A stretch of DNA of 27,695 nt from a virus (IMGVR_UViG_3300045988_163776:128001-155695), one strand, 5' to 3'. Positions 128-8,097 are shown, counted from the stretch's first letter. The notes: a model not told the origin generated them from the letters alone. Program-made: numbers and translations.

Positions 128-146
128 TATAAAGGAGGGTTGCGCA

Positions 147-857
147 ATGGCAGTAGCAAAAAGCTTTAAAAATTTTGAAATGTTAAGTGAACCATTTGAG
201 AAAAATAATAAGATGTATGTTATTGTGCGAAACCCTAAAACCCAACATGAACGTACCGTAAGATGGTATACAAGTAAAGAGTATGCTAAGCTCTATCCAG
301 AAGAACAACCAATCACACAAGATTGGAAAAATTTAAAGAATTGTCTTGGTTTTAATAAAGGATATATTACAATATTTAAAAATGCAAGTTATGATGATGA
401 ATGGTGTAATATATCAAATGCGCGTTGGCATGAACGTTGGGGCTGGTATATTGCTTCTACAGAAGAAGTACCCGCAGACTGTCCTTTTGAATATGCTCCC
501 TTGTATTGGACTGATATCTCAAAAAGCGAAGGAGCGTTAAAACCAAAAGAGGAGATTGAACAAATTATTTTTTCAATATTTTATGATAATTCTCCATCTC
601 AATATTTAGGTAATATAGGAGATAGAATTGAGCTGGAAGCTGAAATTATAAGTATTGAGAAAGTAGAAACTGCATATGGGGTAAAAGCAAAATATACTCT
701 TTGTGATGAGAAAGGAAATATGCTAGAATGGTTTACTGGAGTAAGAAAAGACTGGTTTAGAGGTAATAAGAAGAATCTTCGAGGCACAGTAAAAGAATTA
801 AAAAGGAAATATGGAATTAACACAACAGTTTTAACAAGATGTTTAGAAAGGAGATGA
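147..857 (+). CDS. hypothetical phage protein (236 aa, starts MAVAKSFKNF)
   Basis: Long ORF. ATG 147 sits 8 nt after AAGGAGG. The ORF-track start at 39 would overlap the upstream gene and has no RBS. TGA stop. Confidence 0.75.
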   Translation: MAVAKSFKNFEMLSEPFEKNNKMYVIVRNPKTQHERTVRWYTSKEYAKLYPEEQPITQDWKNLKNCLGFNKGYITIFKNASYDDEWCNISNARWHERWGWYIASTEEVPADCPFEYAPLYWTDISKSEGALKPKEEIEQIIFSIFYDNSPSQYLGNIGDRIELEAEIISIEKVETAYGVKAKYTLCDEKGNMLEWFTGVRKDWFRGNKKNLRGTVKELKRKYGINTTVLTRCLERR

Positions 858-1022: not shown

Positions 1023-1051
1023 TTGATATTTTATAAAAAATATTATATAAT
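1023..1051 (+). promoter_or_regulatory. sigmaA-type promoter TTGATA-N17-TATAAT
   Basis: Spacing counted by hand. Followed by the family box ATATATATAATAAAAG. Confidence 0.7.
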
Positions 1052-1091: not shown

Positions 1092-2735
1092 ATGTCATTG
1101 ATGAATATGATTAGTAAAGAGGAACAAGAGTTAATTTCAGCTTATAGAGAAGCTTATATAGGAAGTCATACAGAATCACTTTGTGATAATGAATATCTAT
1201 TAAGAGTATGGCAAGAAGAAAAATCTAAATTCCTTGCTAAAATTTTTAAAGATAGCCTAATTCTTAAAAAAGAAGTTGTAGTTAAGTTACCACATGAAAT
1301 GATCGCCGTAGAAATGGATGGAAAATTATGTTATTATCCTCGTAGAGATGGTTATGTGGATCCTGGAACTCCAAAAGGCTTTATAAGACAGCTAATGAAC
1401 TTAGTCGATGAATTATGTGAAAAAGATTGTATTGATTGGGCTTTAAGAAATGCCATGCGTAACATAAATGGAGATCTTTTAGCAGACAATAGATTTATTG
1501 ATAGATGGGATCCAGATCATAAAAGAAATTTTAAAGTGACTCATCCTTCAGATAAAAGAAAAAGTTTCACTATTTCTTATGGAATGAAATTAATGAAAGT
1601 ATATAATAAATTTGCTACTGCTTTTGGCATTGCAGGTTTTGATGAATATGCAGTCGTTCATTCTCAAATTTTAAATACGACTAATCTTAAAGGAACGCTA
1701 TGCTTGTCAATACATCCTTTAGATTATATGACAATGAGTGATAACAACTCAAATTGGACTTCTTGTATGTCTTGGGAAGGTGACGGCGAGTATAGACAAG
1801 GCACTGTAGAAATGATGAACTCTGATTGTATTGTTGTAGGTTACCTTGAGTCTTCAGCTCCTATGAATATATTAGGAGCAAAATGGAATAACAAAAAATA
1901 TCGTAGTTTATACTGCGTTAATGAAGATGTTATAGCCAATATAAAAGGTTACCCTTATAAAAGCTTAGAGATTGATAAAATAGTTATTGATTGGCTAAAA
2001 GAATTAGTTGAAGCCAATACAGATATCAAATATGAGAGTGATATTATAGATTTTAATAGTGACGAAAATGATTATTATTTAGATTTTCATACTCATATTA
2101 TGTATAATGACTGCTGGAATACAAAAGGCTGTAGAACATGTCATATAGGCTATGTAAGCAATTTAGCATCACATAATTGTTATGTTCATTATTCTGGACC
2201 TGATGAATGCATGTGTTGTGGAGCAGTTGGAGTTATGGAAGAGTGCAGTGAAAGTGATTTGGTTTGCGATTCCTGTGATGGCTATGAGTATTGCGATCAT
2301 TGTGGAGATAGATGCAACTTTGGTGAAACTCATCATATTGATGGATATTCTCTTTGCAGTTACTGCTATGATGAAGCTGTTGCGCAAGACTTCTTTGATG
2401 AAACAGAGCATTTAGAAAATAATATGGTACAAGCAAAAATTAATGTTGACGCTGAAAGCGGAATGTTCATTCGCTCACATTCTGTTTATAGTATTTTTAT
2501 TGATATAAAAAATATAGAAAAATTTATCTCTGTATGCCCTAAAATTTTTAAAGAAGAAAAAATGTCTTCTTATAAGATCTTTTCTGAAGAAAGTTTTTAT
2601 TATGAAGGGAAAATAATAGAGATTAACTGGAATGACCTTTCTGATTATGGTTGGAAATTTTTCTTTAAAGAAAATGATGCGATGATTGAATCAGTTAAAT
2701 TATTCTGTAAACGTTATGAAGAAGCTAAAATTTGA
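1092..2735 (+). CDS. large Cys-rich protein, paralog of 5291-6667; conserved HPLD/W-SC/GEYR core plus C-terminal CxxC zinc-ribbon cluster (possibly PcfJ-like, unverified)
   Basis: 547-aa ORF behind promoter 1023-1051 and an AAGAGG RBS. Shares the motifs LS(I/V)HPLD(Y/F), NW(T/R)SC, GEYR-G and WNNKK(Y/W)R with ORF 5291. The C-terminus has at least 6 CxxC pairs. Confidence 0.85.
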   Translation: MSLMNMISKEEQELISAYREAYIGSHTESLCDNEYLLRVWQEEKSKFLAKIFKDSLILKKEVVVKLPHEMIAVEMDGKLCYYPRRDGYVDPGTPKGFIRQLMNLVDELCEKDCIDWALRNAMRNINGDLLADNRFIDRWDPDHKRNFKVTHPSDKRKSFTISYGMKLMKVYNKFATAFGIAGFDEYAVVHSQILNTTNLKGTLCLSIHPLDYMTMSDNNSNWTSCMSWEGDGEYRQGTVEMMNSDCIVVGYLESSAPMNILGAKWNNKKYRSLYCVNEDVIANIKGYPYKSLEIDKIVIDWLKELVEANTDIKYESDIIDFNSDENDYYLDFHTHIMYNDCWNTKGCRTCHIGYVSNLASHNCYVHYSGPDECMCCGAVGVMEECSESDLVCDSCDGYEYCDHCGDRCNFGETHHIDGYSLCSYCYDEAVAQDFFDETEHLENNMVQAKINVDAESGMFIRSHSVYSIFIDIKNIEKFISVCPKIFKEEKMSSYKIFSEESFYYEGKIIEINWNDLSDYGWKFFFKENDAMIESVKLFCKRYEEAKI

Positions 2736-2759
2736 AAAAGTTAAAAAAATAATGTATAA
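2731..2759 (+). promoter_or_regulatory. sigmaA-type promoter TTGAAA-N17-TATAAT (TG-extended)
   Basis: The -35 overlaps the TGA stop of gene 1092-2735. The -10 reads ATGTATAAT. Confidence 0.65.
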
Positions 2760-2792
2760 TAATTATAGAAAATAAATAATAAAGAAGAAAGG

Positions 2793-3224
2793 ATGTTGAA
2801 AAACATGACTGAGAAGACAAAAAAGATAACAAAGAGAGACATTTATGAAGCAATTGCGCAGGCAATGGAAACTGGTGAAAGCACCATTGAGCCACAAGAA
2901 ATCATTAATTTCTGTCACAAGGAAATTGCAGCCCTTGACCGCAAAGCTGAAAAAGCAAGAGAAAATGCAGCGAAAAAACGTGAAGAGGGAGATGCTCTAC
3001 TAGAGCTTGTAAGAAATGCTCTTACAGACGAATATTCAATTATCGCTGATATTACGGCTCGTATTGAAAGTGATGAAGTCGAAGTAACAGTAGCCAAGGT
3101 TCAGTATAGACTTAATCAGCTAATCCAAATGGGTGAAGCTGAAAAGTCAGACGTTTCAGTCGGAGAAACTGGTTCAAAAAGAACTCTTAAAGGCTATCGA
3201 AAAATAGCAACTATTGAAGACTAA
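2793..3224 (+). CDS. hypothetical acidic/coiled-coil protein (143 aa; start may be ATG 2805)
   Basis: ORF behind promoter 2731-2759, followed by a strong terminator at 3238-3269. TAA stop. Confidence 0.8.
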   Translation: MLKNMTEKTKKITKRDIYEAIAQAMETGESTIEPQEIINFCHKEIAALDRKAEKARENAAKKREEGDALLELVRNALTDEYSIIADITARIESDEVEVTVAKVQYRLNQLIQMGEAEKSDVSVGETGSKRTLKGYRKIATIED

Positions 3225-3237
3225 TTATTGTTTAAAA

Positions 3238-3269
3238 AGGAGTAGAAATTTTATCTACTCCTTTTTTTT
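3238..3269 (+). terminator. rho-independent terminator
   Basis: 9-bp stem aggagtaga/tctactcct followed by a T8 run. Confidence 0.85.
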
Positions 3270-3339
3270 CTTTTATCTGCTCCGGCCGGATACGCACATA
3301 AACACCGCAAATCCAAAGAAAAATGGATTTAGAAAATTT

Positions 3340-3368
3340 TTGACAAAATTCTTAATTTATGGTATTAT
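3340..3368 (+). promoter_or_regulatory. sigmaA-type promoter TTGACA-N17-TATTAT
   Basis: Consensus -35 with 17-nt spacer, 20 nt upstream of the RBS of gene 3390. Confidence 0.7.
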
Positions 3369-3389
3369 AAAAATGAAGGAGTGATAATA

Positions 3390-4193
3390 ATGAAATATTC
3401 ATTACCAAATAGAATATCATTACAATATTTAAAGCAAGCAGATGAAATAAAAATACAAAAATCTGATTGCGAGAAAACAATAGATTATATAGAAGATTAT
3501 CCAGAAGCAGAAATAGTATTATGTATAGAAGATCTAAAACAACAATTTTCAGGAAATGAAGAGGTCATTACGAATACATTGAAAATGTATAAAGAAGAAA
3601 GTAATAAAAAATTTAGTATAGAGCTAGAGCATTTAAATGAAGATGTTGCGTTATTAAAAAAATTGGAAATTCCTTTCTTCTGGAAATATCCAGTGACTAC
3701 TTTTGATGAATTGCAAGCTTTAAAGGAATTAGGAGTTTCACAAGTATTAATAGATGGTCCTCTCTTTTTTCAGATGAGAGAAGTAAAGAGATTTCATATT
3801 CCAATTAGAGTAATTCCAAATGTATGTTACGAGAACTATCTTCCAAGAGCAAATGGTTTGCATGGAACTTGGATGCGCCCGCAAGATCAAGATTTATATG
3901 ACCAATATGTTTCTATTTTAGAATTTAAAGAAAAAGATTTCACCAAATTAGAAGCCTTATTTGACATATATTCTAAAGATAAAACATATTTTGGAGATTT
4001 GAATACATTATTTACAAATTTTGGTTTTACTATTCCTATACTTGCGGCAGCAGTACCTCGAGATGTCATTAAGTCTAGATTAAACTGTGGTCAACGCTGT
4101 ACACAGAATCGTTGTCACTTATGTGAGCGAGGATTGTCTGTTGGTTTACAAGTGCAGACAAGTGAGTATATTAGAGTAAAAGAGCAAAATTGA
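3390..4193 (+). CDS. hypothetical protein (267 aa) with C-terminal CGQRC-x5-CHLC motif
   Basis: ATG 3390 is 9 nt after AAGGAG (3375-3380). Promoter TTGACA-N17-TATTAT lies at 3340-3368. TGA stop. Confidence 0.8.
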   Translation: MKYSLPNRISLQYLKQADEIKIQKSDCEKTIDYIEDYPEAEIVLCIEDLKQQFSGNEEVITNTLKMYKEESNKKFSIELEHLNEDVALLKKLEIPFFWKYPVTTFDELQALKELGVSQVLIDGPLFFQMREVKRFHIPIRVIPNVCYENYLPRANGLHGTWMRPQDQDLYDQYVSILEFKEKDFTKLEALFDIYSKDKTYFGDLNTLFTNFGFTIPILAAAVPRDVIKSRLNCGQRCTQNRCHLCERGLSVGLQVQTSEYIRVKEQN

Positions 4194-4218
4194 TTTTTTA
4201 TTAAAAATATTATATAAT
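4190..4218 (+). promoter_or_regulatory. sigmaA-type promoter TTGATT-N17-TATAAT
   Basis: Overlaps the stop of gene 3390-4193. Family member. Confidence 0.65.
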
Positions 4219-4268
4219 TATTATAGAAAAAAATGAAAAAAATAATTATATAAGGGGTGTTTATAGAT

Positions 4269-5294
4269 ATGCTTACTTTTTCAGAACAGCAATTTAAAAC
4301 TTTTAAGCAAATTGCCCAGTTAAAACAATCTGGTTTGAAAAAGGTTTTAGTGTCTTTCTTAAGAAAACATTATAGCCAAAACCGAGTTTTTTACTCTGAG
4401 CATTATATTTATGCTATTGGAGATATTCCTATTGCATTAGTGGCGCATTTAGACACTGTTCATAAAAAAATTCCAAGTCAAATATTTTGGGACAGAGAAG
4501 AAGATGTGGTTTGGAGTCCCCAAGGGTTAGGGGCAGATGATAGGGCTGGAGTATATGCTATTATGCAGATTATTTCTTCTGGACTACGACCTCACATTAT
4601 TTTTACGACAGATGAAGAAATTGGTGGAATAGGAGCTATTTTATTATCTAAACGAACAAATCCTTTTGCAGATTTACGTTATATGATAGAGCTTGACCGC
4701 AGAGGTTTTACAGATTGTGTTTTTTATGATTGTAATAATAAAGATTTTGAAAAATATATAGAATCTTTTGGATTTGAGACAGATTGGGGCACCTATTCAG
4801 ATATCTGCGAATTAAGTCCAAGCTGGAAAATTGCAGGTGTAAATTTATCCATAGGATATTTTAATGAGCATTCTTTCGCAGAGTATTTAGAACCTAATAT
4901 ATTAATGAATACTATAAAAAAAGTTAAAGAGATGTTAAAAACACCTAAAGAAGATATTCCTGTGTTTAAATATATTCCTTATAAATCTTCTAAACCGGGT
5001 TTTGTTTACGACACAGATGAAAATTATAAAAAATTAGCTTTAGCTTATGGATATAATTTTTATGATGATGAGATAGGAATAATTTGTTCAGGTTGCCATG
5101 AAGCATTTTTTGAAGATGAAGTATTCCCAGTAAAAAGTGTTGATGGAACTACGAAATATTATTGTCCAGATTGTGTTACAGATAATATAGAATGGTGCAT
5201 TAGGTGTAATGAGCCTTTTGAAAAAGAAAATCCAGAAGATACTAATATATTATGCAAAGATTGTAGAAAAATTAAGGAGGCTTCTTCTAAATGA
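4269..5294 (+). CDS. M20/M28/M42-type metallopeptidase-like protein with C-terminal zinc ribbons
   Basis: Metal-ligand-like motif series AHLDTVH, GADDRAG, TTDEEIGG, ELDRRG, GYFNEHS. C-terminal CSGC...CPDC...CIRC...CKDC. ATG 4269 follows AAGGGG; the alternative GTG 4257 is in frame. Confidence 0.75.
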   Translation: MLTFSEQQFKTFKQIAQLKQSGLKKVLVSFLRKHYSQNRVFYSEHYIYAIGDIPIALVAHLDTVHKKIPSQIFWDREEDVVWSPQGLGADDRAGVYAIMQIISSGLRPHIIFTTDEEIGGIGAILLSKRTNPFADLRYMIELDRRGFTDCVFYDCNNKDFEKYIESFGFETDWGTYSDICELSPSWKIAGVNLSIGYFNEHSFAEYLEPNILMNTIKKVKEMLKTPKEDIPVFKYIPYKSSKPGFVYDTDENYKKLALAYGYNFYDDEIGIICSGCHEAFFEDEVFPVKSVDGTTKYYCPDCVTDNIEWCIRCNEPFEKENPEDTNILCKDCRKIKEASSK

Positions 5295-6667
5295 GTTGTT
5301 TATTTACAATAGCAAAACAATTTGAACAGGTAATTGATTATTCTCAAGGATTTAAACCGGCACAATCAAAACAAGTTATAAAACAATGGTTTAAAGCTAA
5401 AAAACCTTTCATAAAAAAATTAGGTGGTTTTATATATGAATATCCAGAAACTATAACAACAGATTTATCAGATGCAGAAAAAAGAATGAAAATTAGTGAT
5501 TTTACTGACTGGGTAGAAAGAAAATATGGCTTATATGATTTATCTAATTTTATTACAGCAAATGAAAAAACTTTTTTTGAAAATGCAGTAGCAGAAGAAT
5601 ATAAATATAAAGGTATTATTATACCAAAAGGAATGAAATTATTAAAAGCTTTTAAATATTTTGAAGAGAATAAAGATATTTTAAACGATATTCAAAATGT
5701 GGCAAGTATGTCTATACAAGAAAATAAAATTTCTGGAAAACTATGTTTATCAGTGCATCCACTAGACTTTTTATCCAGTAGCGAGAATACTCTTAATTGG
5801 CGGTCTTGTCATGCCCTTGACGGAGAATATCGCGCGGGGAATTTAAGCTATATGCTTGATGGGAGTACAATAATTTGTTATTTAAAGACAGATGAAGAAG
5901 TAAAGCTTCCACGTTTCCCCTCAAGCGTACCTTGGAACAATAAAAAATGGCGTTGTTTATTATTCTTTTCAGAAAATAATAAAATGATGTTTGCGGGACG
6001 CCCTTATCCATTCGCTGCAAATGGACTTTTAAATAAAATAAGAGATATAGTTCAAGAATTAAAATTGATTGAAGTATTAAATCAACCTTATTGGAGAAAA
6101 CAATACCTTAGCGAATGGCGAAATGATTATGTTGATACTTTTAATTTTTCAGATGGGACACAAGTTAAATTAGAGAGTAGGTTTATTTTAGATTGTTATA
6201 GTGAACTAGTACGTCTGGAAGAAATAATAACAAATGGACAAGGAAGTTGTCATTATAACGATTTGCTATATTCTTCTTGTTATGTGCCTTATTATGTTCA
6301 AGTAGAGTCTGGAGATCATGTCCCAAAGTATAAAAACTATTTTAAAATTGGAGCTAGAACTTTATGCCTTAATTGCGGGAAGTATGAAATATCAGACCCA
6401 GATTCAATGCTATGTGAAGACTGTCTTGATTATTATGATTCAGAAGATTGCTTAGATGAAACATTCTGTTCTGAATGCGGAGCAATAGTTGAAGAGGGTG
6501 AAGGAGAGTTTGCTGCAACAGGGGAGTTTTTATGCCCTCATTGTATAGAAGAATATACCCAAAGATGCTATAAATGTAATGCACGATATTATCAAAATGA
6601 TATGTCTGTTGTTCGAGATGAAGATAATACTCATGTACATTGGATTTGTGCAAATTGTAAGGAATAG
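5291..6667 (+). CDS. large Cys-rich protein, paralog of 1092-2735; ends at TAG (read-through would extend to TAA 6698-6700)
   Basis: 458-aa ORF whose start overlaps the upstream stop (ATGA). Same conserved core motifs as ORF 1092 and a C-terminal CxxC cluster. The terminal codon is TAG 6665-6667, followed by 10 sense codons (EEEEEEYYGG) then TAA. Confidence 0.85.
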   Translation: MSCLFTIAKQFEQVIDYSQGFKPAQSKQVIKQWFKAKKPFIKKLGGFIYEYPETITTDLSDAEKRMKISDFTDWVERKYGLYDLSNFITANEKTFFENAVAEEYKYKGIIIPKGMKLLKAFKYFEENKDILNDIQNVASMSIQENKISGKLCLSVHPLDFLSSSENTLNWRSCHALDGEYRAGNLSYMLDGSTIICYLKTDEEVKLPRFPSSVPWNNKKWRCLLFFSENNKMMFAGRPYPFAANGLLNKIRDIVQELKLIEVLNQPYWRKQYLSEWRNDYVDTFNFSDGTQVKLESRFILDCYSELVRLEEIITNGQGSCHYNDLLYSSCYVPYYVQVESGDHVPKYKNYFKIGARTLCLNCGKYEISDPDSMLCEDCLDYYDSEDCLDETFCSECGAIVEEGEGEFAATGEFLCPHCIEEYTQRCYKCNARYYQNDMSVVRDEDNTHVHWICANCKE

Positions 6668-6689
6668 GAAGAAGAGGAGGAAGAATATT

Positions 6690-7001
6690 ATGGCGGCTAA
6701 AGGAACAGAAGCGAAAAATTTAGTTATTTCAAAAATTAAAGAAGCCTTTGGAGAAGATTATATTTTAACAGAAGGCAGTAAAGTCTATGTGTGGGCAGAA
6801 GATGGAGCTAATGGTAGAGTGCAAATAGCTATGACTTTAACTTGCCCAAAAGTAATGGTTGGCGAATGTGCATCAGTTGCAGTAGTTGGCAATCAGTTGG
6901 ATTTTGAAGCAGAATTGCCGCATGCACAAGTGGACTCTGCGCAAATAACTGAACAGGAAAAAAATAATATTGAAGAACTCATGAAACGTTTGAATCTATA
7001 A
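6690..7001 (+). CDS. hypothetical protein (103 aa, starts MAAKGTEAKN)
   Basis: ATG 6690 is preceded by GAGGAGGAAG. The ORF-track start at 6579 lies inside the upstream gene and lacks an RBS. Confidence 0.7.
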   Translation: MAAKGTEAKNLVISKIKEAFGEDYILTEGSKVYVWAEDGANGRVQIAMTLTCPKVMVGECASVAVVGNQLDFEAELPHAQVDSAQITEQEKNNIEELMKRLNL

Positions 7002-7378: not shown

Positions 7379-7703
7379 TCTATTTAGTAAAATGGTTTAT
7401 AATTTAAGTTTTCCGGAAAAACTTAGTACAATCATTGGATTTATATTATGAGTTCGAGTCTCATTAGCTTGCTACAGTAAAGGACGAATATAAAAACTTA
7501 AAATGTATTAGAGGTCAGCTCTGTGGTGAGAGTGAGTACTAAGATACAGGAGATTGGAAGTAAGCAATACACACCACTGAGCTTACTTTTGAGAGATATG
7601 AGATAGAACCTCCTCGTGGTTTCTCTCGGGCAATGCCTTAATAACTTTTGTTTATAGTTAATATGGTAGCAAATCTATCTTTACCCCTTTCCTTATAATA
7701 CTT

Positions 7704-7781
7704 AAAAAAAAGACAGTATCAGCAAATGAAATGCGTTAAATTAGGGATTTAAAGTGCTTTTATAAAACTGTCTTGTAATAT
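7704..7781 (+). ncRNA. bipartite long-range stem element E1 (aagacagt...actgtctt + TGTAA), encloses an anticodon-arm-like hairpin
   Basis: The 8-bp helix pairs 7710-7717 with 7767-7774. The conserved box ATCAGCAAAT follows the 5' arm. The inner hairpin is ttaaa-TTAGGGA-tttaa. Confidence 0.5.
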
Positions 7782-7849
7782 GGTTCTATGGTTTAAGAAA
7801 TTAAAGTACTGTTTTATCATAGTAGAGCTTAAATCTCATAGAACCACCA
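7782..7849 (+). tRNA. compact tRNA-like gene with perfect acceptor stem and encoded CCA; 6/8-nt anticodon loop, reduced T arm
   Basis: Acceptor ggttcta/tagaacc, then A-CCA. Anticodon arm tactg-ttttatca-tagta. The T arm is only gag-cttaaat-ctc. Confidence 0.4.
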
Positions 7850-7855
7850 TTATAT

Positions 7856-7928
7856 AGTGATGTAGTTCAGTTGGCAGAACACCTCTCTAATACGGAGGAA
7901 GTCATAGGTTCAAACCCTATTATCACTA
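7856..7928 (+). tRNA. tRNA with anticodon AAT (Ile by anticodon; A34 is unusual)
   Basis: Acceptor agtgatg/tatcact, D arm gttc-agttggca-gaac, anticodon arm cctct-CTAATAC-ggagg, T arm atagg-ttcaaac-cctat. Confidence 0.7.
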
Positions 7929-8063
7929 TCTTGTGTCGTCGTCAGCGACTATAAATAACTGTGCAGGTTCCCGTGCGATAGCGGATGTGCAAGCTAATCC
8001 ACAAACATACTATCGCCTATATTCCTCTATAGCTCAGCTGGAGGAGCCAAATACATTGAATTG

Positions 8064-8097
8064 AGGGTATTAGTCCTCAATTCAATGTTCTAAAGGG
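8064..8097 (+). repeat. perfect 13-bp hairpin inside a tRNA-like fragment
   Basis: cattgaattgagg-gtattagt-cctcaattcaatg, flanked by a canonical D arm (gctc-agctggag-gagc, 8042-8057) and a closing helix ctctat/atagag. Confidence 0.7.

Follow-up and report, generated by a model that had tools for sequence, protein, structure and literature searches.

A putative zinc-ribbon module links two paralogous cysteine-rich proteins to a lid-less M20-type hydrolase in a conserved phage gene block

Why are two cysteine-rich proteins and a peptidase-like hydrolase, all carrying CxxC motifs of one kind, encoded within a single short block of phage genes? The question is raised by a sequence from a large gut phage, IMGVR_UViG_3300045988_163776:128001-155695, which we analyzed over its whole length of 27,695 nucleotides (hereafter the window; ~30% G+C, with all real genes on the + strand). 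Gene Z lies upstream and is followed by genes A-B-C-D-E-F, in which A (1092..2735, 547 aa) and E (5291..6667, 458 aa) encode the longer and the shorter of the two cysteine-rich proteins and D (4269..5294, 341 aa) encodes the hydrolase. We found that an E-type protein and a D-type hydrolase form an old pair, inherited together in very different mobile elements, and that the present phage clade has two copies of the E-type gene (A and E), whose ribbon module is also found in D. As to function, we tentatively favor, at somewhat less than even confidence, the reading that A-F is an early, host-polymerase-transcribed enzyme module for genome establishment or counter-defense.

By sequence comparison, A and E are paralogs (BLASTP E=3e-22, 27% identity across 345 residues), as expected from the first-pass annotation, which had noticed a distinctive core common to the open reading frames (ORFs) starting at 1092 and 5291. 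The sequence features are genuine and go well past what chance would give. The conserved core covers residues 198-309 of A (1683..2018; SIHPLD, NWTSC, GEYRQG, WNNKKYR, and YPY) and residues 146-256 of E (5726..6058), and its motif reads LCLSIHPLDYMTMSDNNSNWTSCMSWEGDGEYRQG plus WNNKKYR in A and LCLSVHPLDFLSSSENTLNWRSCHALDGEYRAG plus WNNKKWR in E. These shared motifs were invariant or nearly so in a 110-sequence alignment mixing both families, in which the invariant positions, in E numbering, were K37, S139, G149, S154, P157, D159, S164, W170, S172, C173, G178, G183, Y197, K218, K219, R221, Y239, P240, D324, and the ribbon cysteines. Approximately 12 polar or structural residues were unchanged even in Enterococcus-phage and bacterial relatives at 17-23% identity, with K37, S154, P157, D159, W170, C173, G178, G183, R221, Y239, P240, and D324 invariant in the wider family and 2 of these, K37 and D324, lying outside the 146-256 core span. 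Invariance across such distant relatives argues for an active or ligand-binding site retained in both paralogs. A Cys-His-Asp triad was considered and dropped, as the paralogs of Enterococcus phages have another residue in place of H156 of the HPLD motif, and ligase-like KxDG and AEP-primase motifs, judged by eye, were set aside with the Lys missing and the motif order wrong.

AlphaFold models of E (pLDDT 92.9, pTM 0.86) and A (pLDDT 92.9, pTM 0.82) have a common layout of helical N-domain, alpha/beta core, beta-rich middle domain, and ribbons. Secondary structure and alignment place an extra alpha/beta domain of ~118 residues, confidently modeled, C-terminal to the ribbons in A only (residues 430-547, 2379..2732). 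A PDB structure search with the A/E core returned no fold match, and Pfam, NCBIfam, PHROGs, and PADLOC gave for A and E sub-threshold zinc-ribbon models and PHROGs of unknown function alone, including phrog_18912 and phrog_29713 for E. Searched against predicted viral structures (BFVD), the E model matched uncharacterized proteins alone, some from uncultured phages and others from Klebsiella KpV48, Shigella Buco, Dickeya JA29, and Vibrio DE17; 2 further entries are of the same length as proteins of Enterococcus phage EF1. Some members of the A family (e.g., protein P0156) are named "DNA-directed RNA polymerase subunit RPC12/RpoP" by JGI, which is almost certainly an annotation artefact from the zinc ribbons. 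The A/E core is a large conserved family without a characterized relative.

The identification of 4269-5294 as an M20/M28-like peptidase was borne out. D matched phrog_34186 at 6.6e-58 and phrog_4191 ("peptidase") at 7e-32, and its family profile found the tripeptidase 3rza at 5.9e-12, as well as Peptidase T 3gb0, in the PDB. Pfam matches to M28 (19.4 bits, cut-off 21.3) and M20 (14.1 bits, cut-off 24.6) were both sub-threshold, and NCBIfam gave weak matches to [LysW]-lysine hydrolase and PepT. Across 37 sequences, H60, D62, D90, D91, E116, E117, D143, H201, and E205 were invariant, and D contains the 5 metal ligands and catalytic Glu of clan MH (HxD, bridging D, EE, D/E, and H), so that its conserved residues mark it as a clan-MH di-metal hydrolase (PepT/M20-like, M28-sized). 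It is probably active as an enzyme because H60, D62, D90/D91, E116/E117, D143, and H201 are invariant. Like Peptidase T and tripeptidase M20B (3gb0 and 3rza) of clan MH, which includes M28 and M42, D retains HxD, GADDRAG, DEE, LDR, and NEH. The alignment with 3rza spans chain residues 75-180 and 346-389, with the ~165 residues between them represented by ~48 in D. Unlike PepT, D therefore lacks the M20 lid/dimerization domain, hence its M28 size, and adds a conserved double zinc ribbon. In architecture it is a new variant within a known peptidase clan.

Cysteines are concentrated in the ribbon regions of all 3 proteins. E has 13 in its last 105 residues versus 8 in the other 353, forming 3 tandem zinc ribbons (residues 359-456, 6365..6658) with conserved C359, C362, C375, C378, C393, C396, C415, C418, and C453. 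A has 11 in residues 368-430 versus 14 in the other 484, forming a ribbon pair (residues 373-425, 2208..2366; CxxC..CxxC twice) whose conserved cysteines (C373, C376, C395, C401, C404, C422, and C425) were invariant in 88 homologs. D has 8 in its last 74 residues versus 3 elsewhere, and the 8 of its double ribbon (5085..5264; C273, C276, C299, C302, C310, C313, C329, and C332) were invariant or nearly so and present in most D homologs. Each ribbon of A, D, and E has 2 CxxC knuckles, and the paired CxxC positions are kept across homologs. The first-pass annotation had described each paralog as ending in a dense CxxC array, which is correct for E; in A the array is internal and followed by the ~118-residue domain. 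Its view that the peptidase bears the same kind of tail was upheld by profile comparison, in which the D tail aligned with E ribbons 2-3 at an hhalign probability of 96.9% (E=1.8e-10) versus at most 3.3% for 30 column-shuffled controls, and the A ribbons aligned with E ribbons 1-2 at 98.7%. The putative zinc-ribbon module is truly common to D, A, and E and, on this sequence evidence, probably homologous. The paired CxxC...CxxC knuckles, modeled mainly as short beta strands, are those of DZR (PF12773) and DZR_2 (PF18912), whose models gave weak, below-threshold matches in several family members; unlike DZR, the A/D/E family has a specific CxxCG-x7-9-V-x7-9-CxxC-x6-7-(W)CxxCGExFE arrangement. 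The ribbons are a known domain type, used here as a shared module.

We identified homologs of both paralogs widely in public metagenomes, with 2135 clusters for E and 1404 for A at 90% identity, often on the same 150-200 kb contigs, and >3,500 clusters for the A/E family at that identity. In a synteny sample of the clade comprising 80 related IMG/VR loci (140-200 kb phage contigs), the order Z...A-B-C-D-E-F was almost invariant, and the A-F block was also seen on contigs binned into gut metagenome-assembled genomes. The window had no megablast match among 50,697 phage records. One related 157-kb phage contig carries an NAD-salvage set just upstream of the module (L001 743-4779), with isochorismatase-family, phosphoribosyltransferase, NAMPT/NAPRTase, and NAD synthase genes resembling phage NAD-reconstitution counter-defense pathways.

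Outside this clade, the E-type and D-type genes keep each other's company. Three E-type paralogs surround a D-type gene in the Enterococcus phages EF1, VRE9, and H1 (~140 kb), which are unclassified large Caudoviricetes (record taxonomy; PMC10607447). In Vescimonas fastidiosa pMM35_02, an E-type gene is directly followed by a D-type gene, with hhalign probabilities of 99.5% (E=2.5e-23) and 100% (E=1e-53), respectively, and the cluster sits in an element that has excisionase and integrase genes as its boundaries and also encodes a RecD-like helicase and a lambda-type exonuclease. The same direct succession was found in 18 further bacterial loci from Oscillospiraceae, other Eubacteriales, and Anaerocolumna xylanovorans, 17 of which have AcrIIA9-family and PcfJ-domain genes upstream of the pair, with YodL in most and LigA in some. 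The cargo order in these Clostridia (L092/L128, pMM35_02 120.3-137.8 kb; L093-L111) runs lambda exonuclease, RecD-like helicase, YodL, AcrIIA9-family, PcfJ, small ORF, LigA, E-like, and D-like. At one edge the cluster is flanked by Tn916-like genes for HTH and sigma regulators, and at the opposite edge by genes for excisionase and integrase. We counted 417 phage records with D-type genes. In Lactococcus and Bacillus phages, a D-like gene stands alone among small early genes, and in Bacillus phage Skywalker it lies close to an Ocr-like DNA mimic.

A similar arrangement is present in podoviruses. KpV48, Peat1, and Vibrio M3 each have a gene for a hypothetical protein (579-712 aa) immediately before a phrog_4191 peptidase gene, and both genes precede that of the primase. 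The order of a large protein followed by a peptidase (phrog_6980 + 4191) recurs in KP34-like and PhiM1-like phages as in the E-type/D-type pair. Genome papers count such "hypothetical + putative peptidase" genes among the conserved early or core genes without assigning them a function (PMC6115819, PMC4411677), the peptidase being among the conserved early genes of PhiM1-like phages (PMC6115819), and PHROGs 18912, 29713, 34186, 6980, and 4191 are annotated just "unknown function" or "peptidase". The large KpV48 protein matched E in the structure search, and its C-terminal region matched the E ribbons at 87% by hhalign. Profiles of the large Autographiviridae proteins (phrog_6980) gave no significant hhalign match to the A/E core, and the Autographiviridae peptidases have no zinc ribbons. 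We regard the large proteins as probably related to E, and the pair as probably present in KP34-like podoviruses upstream of the primase, because of the structure match, the tail match, and the gene adjacency. The same large proteins (L087 3323-5302, L088 1595-3334, and L089 974-3112) have the common motifs ENGPxSCM, RAIV...YVRxYG, and MPYLDG and a strongly acidic C-terminal tail (e.g., DDEEEVEEAA).

The remaining genes of the block are less readily classified. Gene B (2805..3224) encodes ~139 aa, a basic coiled-coil helix followed by a winged-helix-like domain, and is conserved in ~70 related loci. Its family profile matched Lrp/AsnC HTH regulators weakly (E=0.0013), together with Z-alpha domains, and PADLOC-DB gave one weak LmuB match (E=0.015); the protein probably binds nucleic acid. 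Gene C (3390..4193, 267 aa) encodes an alpha/beta protein with a C-terminal cluster of 4 cysteines (C233, C237, C242, and C245; 4086..4124; CGQRC-x4-C-x2-C) that were invariant in 32 homologs as CX3CX4-6CX2C, followed by ~22 more residues. The CGQRC..CHLC sequence that the first-pass annotation saw at the end of this ORF is present and conserved, and it belongs to a different cluster type, a compact metal or Fe-S type motif with another spacing than the paired ribbons of A, D, and E. C has no known family; it may have a U32/TIM-barrel identity, for which there was no Pfam hit and the PDB gave weak matches to designed TIM barrels only. Gene F (6690..7001, 103 aa) follows E in nearly all related loci and encodes an N-domain (~52 residues, with TCPK at its end) and a C-terminal peptide (EITxxE...LMxRLGL), both conserved and joined by a variable linker, a layout reminiscent of proteins that recruit partners via a terminal peptide; a PDB search with F gave no match. 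Most related loci also have gene Z (144..857; phrog_2319 at 4.7e-17) upstream, at a distance that varies. In PADLOC-DB, none of A, C, D, E, F, and Z had a match, and neither did the 2 KpV48 proteins. Between Z and the promoter-like site of A lies a small hydrophobic ORF of 52 aa (864-1022), possibly a membrane peptide.

Gene starts were refined by homolog alignment to 2805 for B, 3390 for C, 4269 for D, and 6690 for F. The only overlapping pair is D/E, with an ATGA in which the E start codon lies in the D stop codon, and gaps of 22-165 bases separate the others. The top sigma-70-type matches fall in the gaps preceding A, B, C, and D, all on the + strand: TTGATA-17-TATAAT at 1023..1051 (11/12 match), TTGAAA-17-TATAAT at 2732..2760 (11/12), TTGACA-17-TATTAT with TG ahead of the second hexamer at 3340..3368 (11/12), and TTGATT-17-TATAAT at 4190..4218 (10/12). 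The sites before A and D belong to one repeated, extended promoter family, the flanks at 1023 resembling those at 4190, 7101, 7172, and 7250. The repeated element, laid out as TTGAHA, an A/T-rich 17-mer, TATAAT, and then atatat.taataaa with similar flanks, was found at 1023, 2732, 4190, 7101, 7172, 7250, 9036, 16788, and 27542. Exact TTGAHA-N17-TATAAT has 7 copies on the + strand and none on the - strand. These copies sit between genes, including before A and B, and precede tRNA blocks, and near-consensus relatives stand before C and D. An intrinsic-terminator-like hairpin with a 13-bp stem and a T run lies 3' of B (3234..3266, + strand). The A-F cluster, which had been proposed as an early operon, is not a single operon and comprises at least 4 transcription units, because 4 promoter-like sites and 1 terminator divide it.

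The proposed early timing fared better: early expression of A-F appears plausible from the promoter family and from the absence of any need for TAG read-through in a phage that recodes TAG. TAG is read as a sense codon in some genes of the window, where read-through merges fragmented frames into long ORFs, with 10, 9, 5, and 2 in-frame TAGs in 15030-16001, 18434-20881, 23291-24241, and 26353-27525, respectively, and none in Z, A-F, the ATPase gene, or the radical SAM gene. Just downstream of the module are 16 tRNA genes (7380-16974), including an 88-nt suppressor tRNA with anticodon CTA that reads TAG (16887-16974). E itself stops at TAG (6665-6667), which fits its translation before recoding takes effect; late TAG suppression would add 11 residues, to 6700. 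Two of the 16, at 11037-11109 and 13082-13156, are odd tRNA-like calls whose anticodon loops are irregular. The tRNA region also contains a GIY-YIG/HNH-type homing-endonuclease-like ORF (9624-10130, phrog_314 at 5.6e-14), and a 166-aa ORF of a function-unknown family (8514-9014, phrog_6660), whose MAKEIERKFLL start resembles what we take to be the ExExK signature of CYTH/triphosphate-tunnel enzymes. An AAA-type ATPase gene (11309-12400, phrog_2376 at 2e-99) is found downstream of the module in several related loci as well. Under TAG read-through, 18434-20881 encodes an 815-aa tail-fiber-like protein, and a collagen-like G-x-Q repeat appears in 20935-21540 if TAG is read as Gln. By-eye likenesses only were noted for 23291-24241 (papain-like peptidase) and 15030-16001 (Cys-rich endonuclease), and a 416-aa radical SAM enzyme is encoded among the recoded genes (24509-25759, phrog_1802 at 1.7e-27).

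The reading of A-F as an early establishment or counter-defense module would explain these observations as follows. Its nucleus is an old mobile-element pair, a Cys-rich enzyme-like E type followed by a lid-less PepT/M20-type D type; D has acquired its double zinc ribbon in the present clade, where the pair is fixed in a six-gene block with B, C, and F. The ribbons would give A, E, and D a common partner or substrate, which could be a nucleic acid or a nucleic-acid-bound protein, and A and E would be active enzymes using the invariant Cys/Asp/Lys/Arg set. Soon after genome entry, the module would establish the incoming DNA by processing a host target enzymatically, as counter-defense or to take over the host, and D would trim or deacylate what A/E recognize or generate. 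We propose an establishment role because of the neighbors: the AcrIIA9-family/PcfJ/YodL islands, the NAD-salvage genes of the 157-kb contig, and the Ocr-like gene near a Bacillus homolog. The first-pass annotation had suggested an early host-takeover or anti-defense role and had named homology of the core to a characterized replication or structural family as contrary evidence. No search returned such homology, and the role gains indirect support from the Clostridia pairs downstream of YodL, AcrIIA9-family, and PcfJ genes. Related pairs also lie in the early region of KP34/PhiM1-like phages.

A functional analogy is offered by the ArdC-type anti-restriction proteins of conjugative plasmids, which combine a nucleic-acid-binding domain with a metalloprotease and are encoded among entry and establishment genes. 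Modules of nucleic-acid-binding type are likewise combined with a metallopeptidase here, on separate proteins; unlike ArdC, D is of the clan-MH exopeptidase type and not a zincin, and Pfam and NCBIfam gave no ArdC-N or zincin homology. A paper on leading-region anti-defense genes (PMC11541004) makes no mention of PcfJ, YodL, or peptidases.

Several points weigh against an establishment or counter-defense role. Guilt by association is weak evidence, and LigA, the RecD-like helicase, the lambda exonuclease, and the podoviral position before the primase fit DNA processing equally well. Strict conservation and a fixed order throughout the clade are more typical of core than of accessory counter-defense genes. 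Over the whole region, promoter-like sites are no more numerous than chance would give (55 found versus 44.5 +/- 7 expected), H156 is not invariant in the wider family, and the Autographiviridae link consists of a Foldseek E-value with a low TM-score, the 87% tail match, and adjacency alone.

The main competitor, which we consider unlikely, is an accessory module for DNA replication, recombination, or repair. In such a module, A and E would be nucleic-acid enzymes or loaders targeted to DNA by their ribbons, B a DNA-binding protein, F an SSB-like adaptor that interacts through its C-terminal peptide, and D the processor of a protein partner. Consistent with this, the pair is followed directly by primase, helicase, and DNA polymerase genes in KpV48, Peat1, and Vibrio M3 and, in bacterial elements, comes after LigA and near the RecD-like helicase and lambda exonuclease genes; zinc ribbons occur widely in primases and in other enzymes acting on nucleic acids, and the winged-helix-like domain of B, the domain-linker-tail layout of F, and the core-like conservation across the clade would all suit such a role. 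Against it, the searches with A/E gave no primase, helicase, nuclease, ligase, or polymerase family, D-like genes stand by themselves among the small early genes of Lactococcus and Bacillus phages, and we know of no established place in replication for an exopeptidase-type hydrolase.

Four enzyme-like proteins in a fixed order would also suit a biosynthetic or modification pathway for a nucleotide, DNA, or small molecule, with C as a metal or Fe-S alpha/beta enzyme, D as an M20-type deacylase or amidohydrolase instead of a peptidase, and A/E as Cys-dependent transferases. The M20 family includes many deacylases and amidohydrolases, and the weak NCBIfam matches of D to [LysW]-lysine hydrolase and PepT, together with the invariant four-Cys cluster of C, point the same way. 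We nevertheless judge this pathway quite improbable, since the minimal unit elsewhere is the E-like/D-like pair alone, without C, no precursor-supplying or known modification enzymes adjoin, and paired zinc ribbons suggest a macromolecular over a small-molecule target.

Finally, the tentative link of the core to PcfJ in the first-pass annotation can be given up, and membership of A and E in a divergent branch of that family (PF14284) is very improbable. PcfJ, as in Enterococcus faecalis pCF10, is a mobile-element protein encoded beside AcrIIA9-family genes, and its genes are conserved neighbors of E-like genes in the Clostridia elements, where PcfJ and E-like are nevertheless separate genes within one cluster. 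We compared pCF10 PcfJ and a 123-sequence PcfJ-domain profile, with 7046 relatives collected, against the A/E profile. PF14284 matched neither A nor E at E<=0.1 and none of 26 family members at E<=1, and hhalign gave a probability of 0.3% against pCF10 PcfJ alone and 1.9% (E=0.026) against the 123-sequence profile; on these results PcfJ homology was rejected. A faint local likeness remains: in each family a loop contains a conserved Cys ([SH]C) and leads into a helix and 3 strands, and the best hhalign alignment falls in this region. The A/E consensus NWxSC...GEYRxG...YMxD..T...WNxKKWR...YP lacks the PcfJ signature computed here (EGxxLxHCVGsY...GkttIlFvR...PxyTxE...QxrGxxN) and shares with it the Cys position and secondary-structure order alone. 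PcfJ, unlike E, has no zinc-ribbon array, and the sequence and profile similarity is not significant.

Under the favored reading of an early establishment or counter-defense module, a more specific proposal is possible, though doubtful: that the E-like/D-like pair is an unrecognized two-enzyme establishment/counter-defense system of large Firmicutes phages, KP34-like podoviruses, and integrative elements, in which a new-fold, Cys-dependent enzyme, targeted by its ribbons, would modify or cleave a host defense or nucleoid component and a lid-less M20-type hydrolase would complete the reaction. Conserved phage families of unassigned role are common. The pair is nonetheless a concrete candidate for a new enzymatic function used by mobile DNA on cell entry, because of its constant metallohydrolase partner and its position beside AcrIIA9-family and PcfJ genes. 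For genetics, the pair has tractable relatives in Enterococcus phages EF1 and H1, Klebsiella phages KP34 and KpV48, Pectobacterium phage PhiM1, and isolates of Vescimonas and Anaerocolumna. Should it prove to be a replication accessory instead, the conserved "hypothetical + peptidase" core genes of many phage papers would gain a role.

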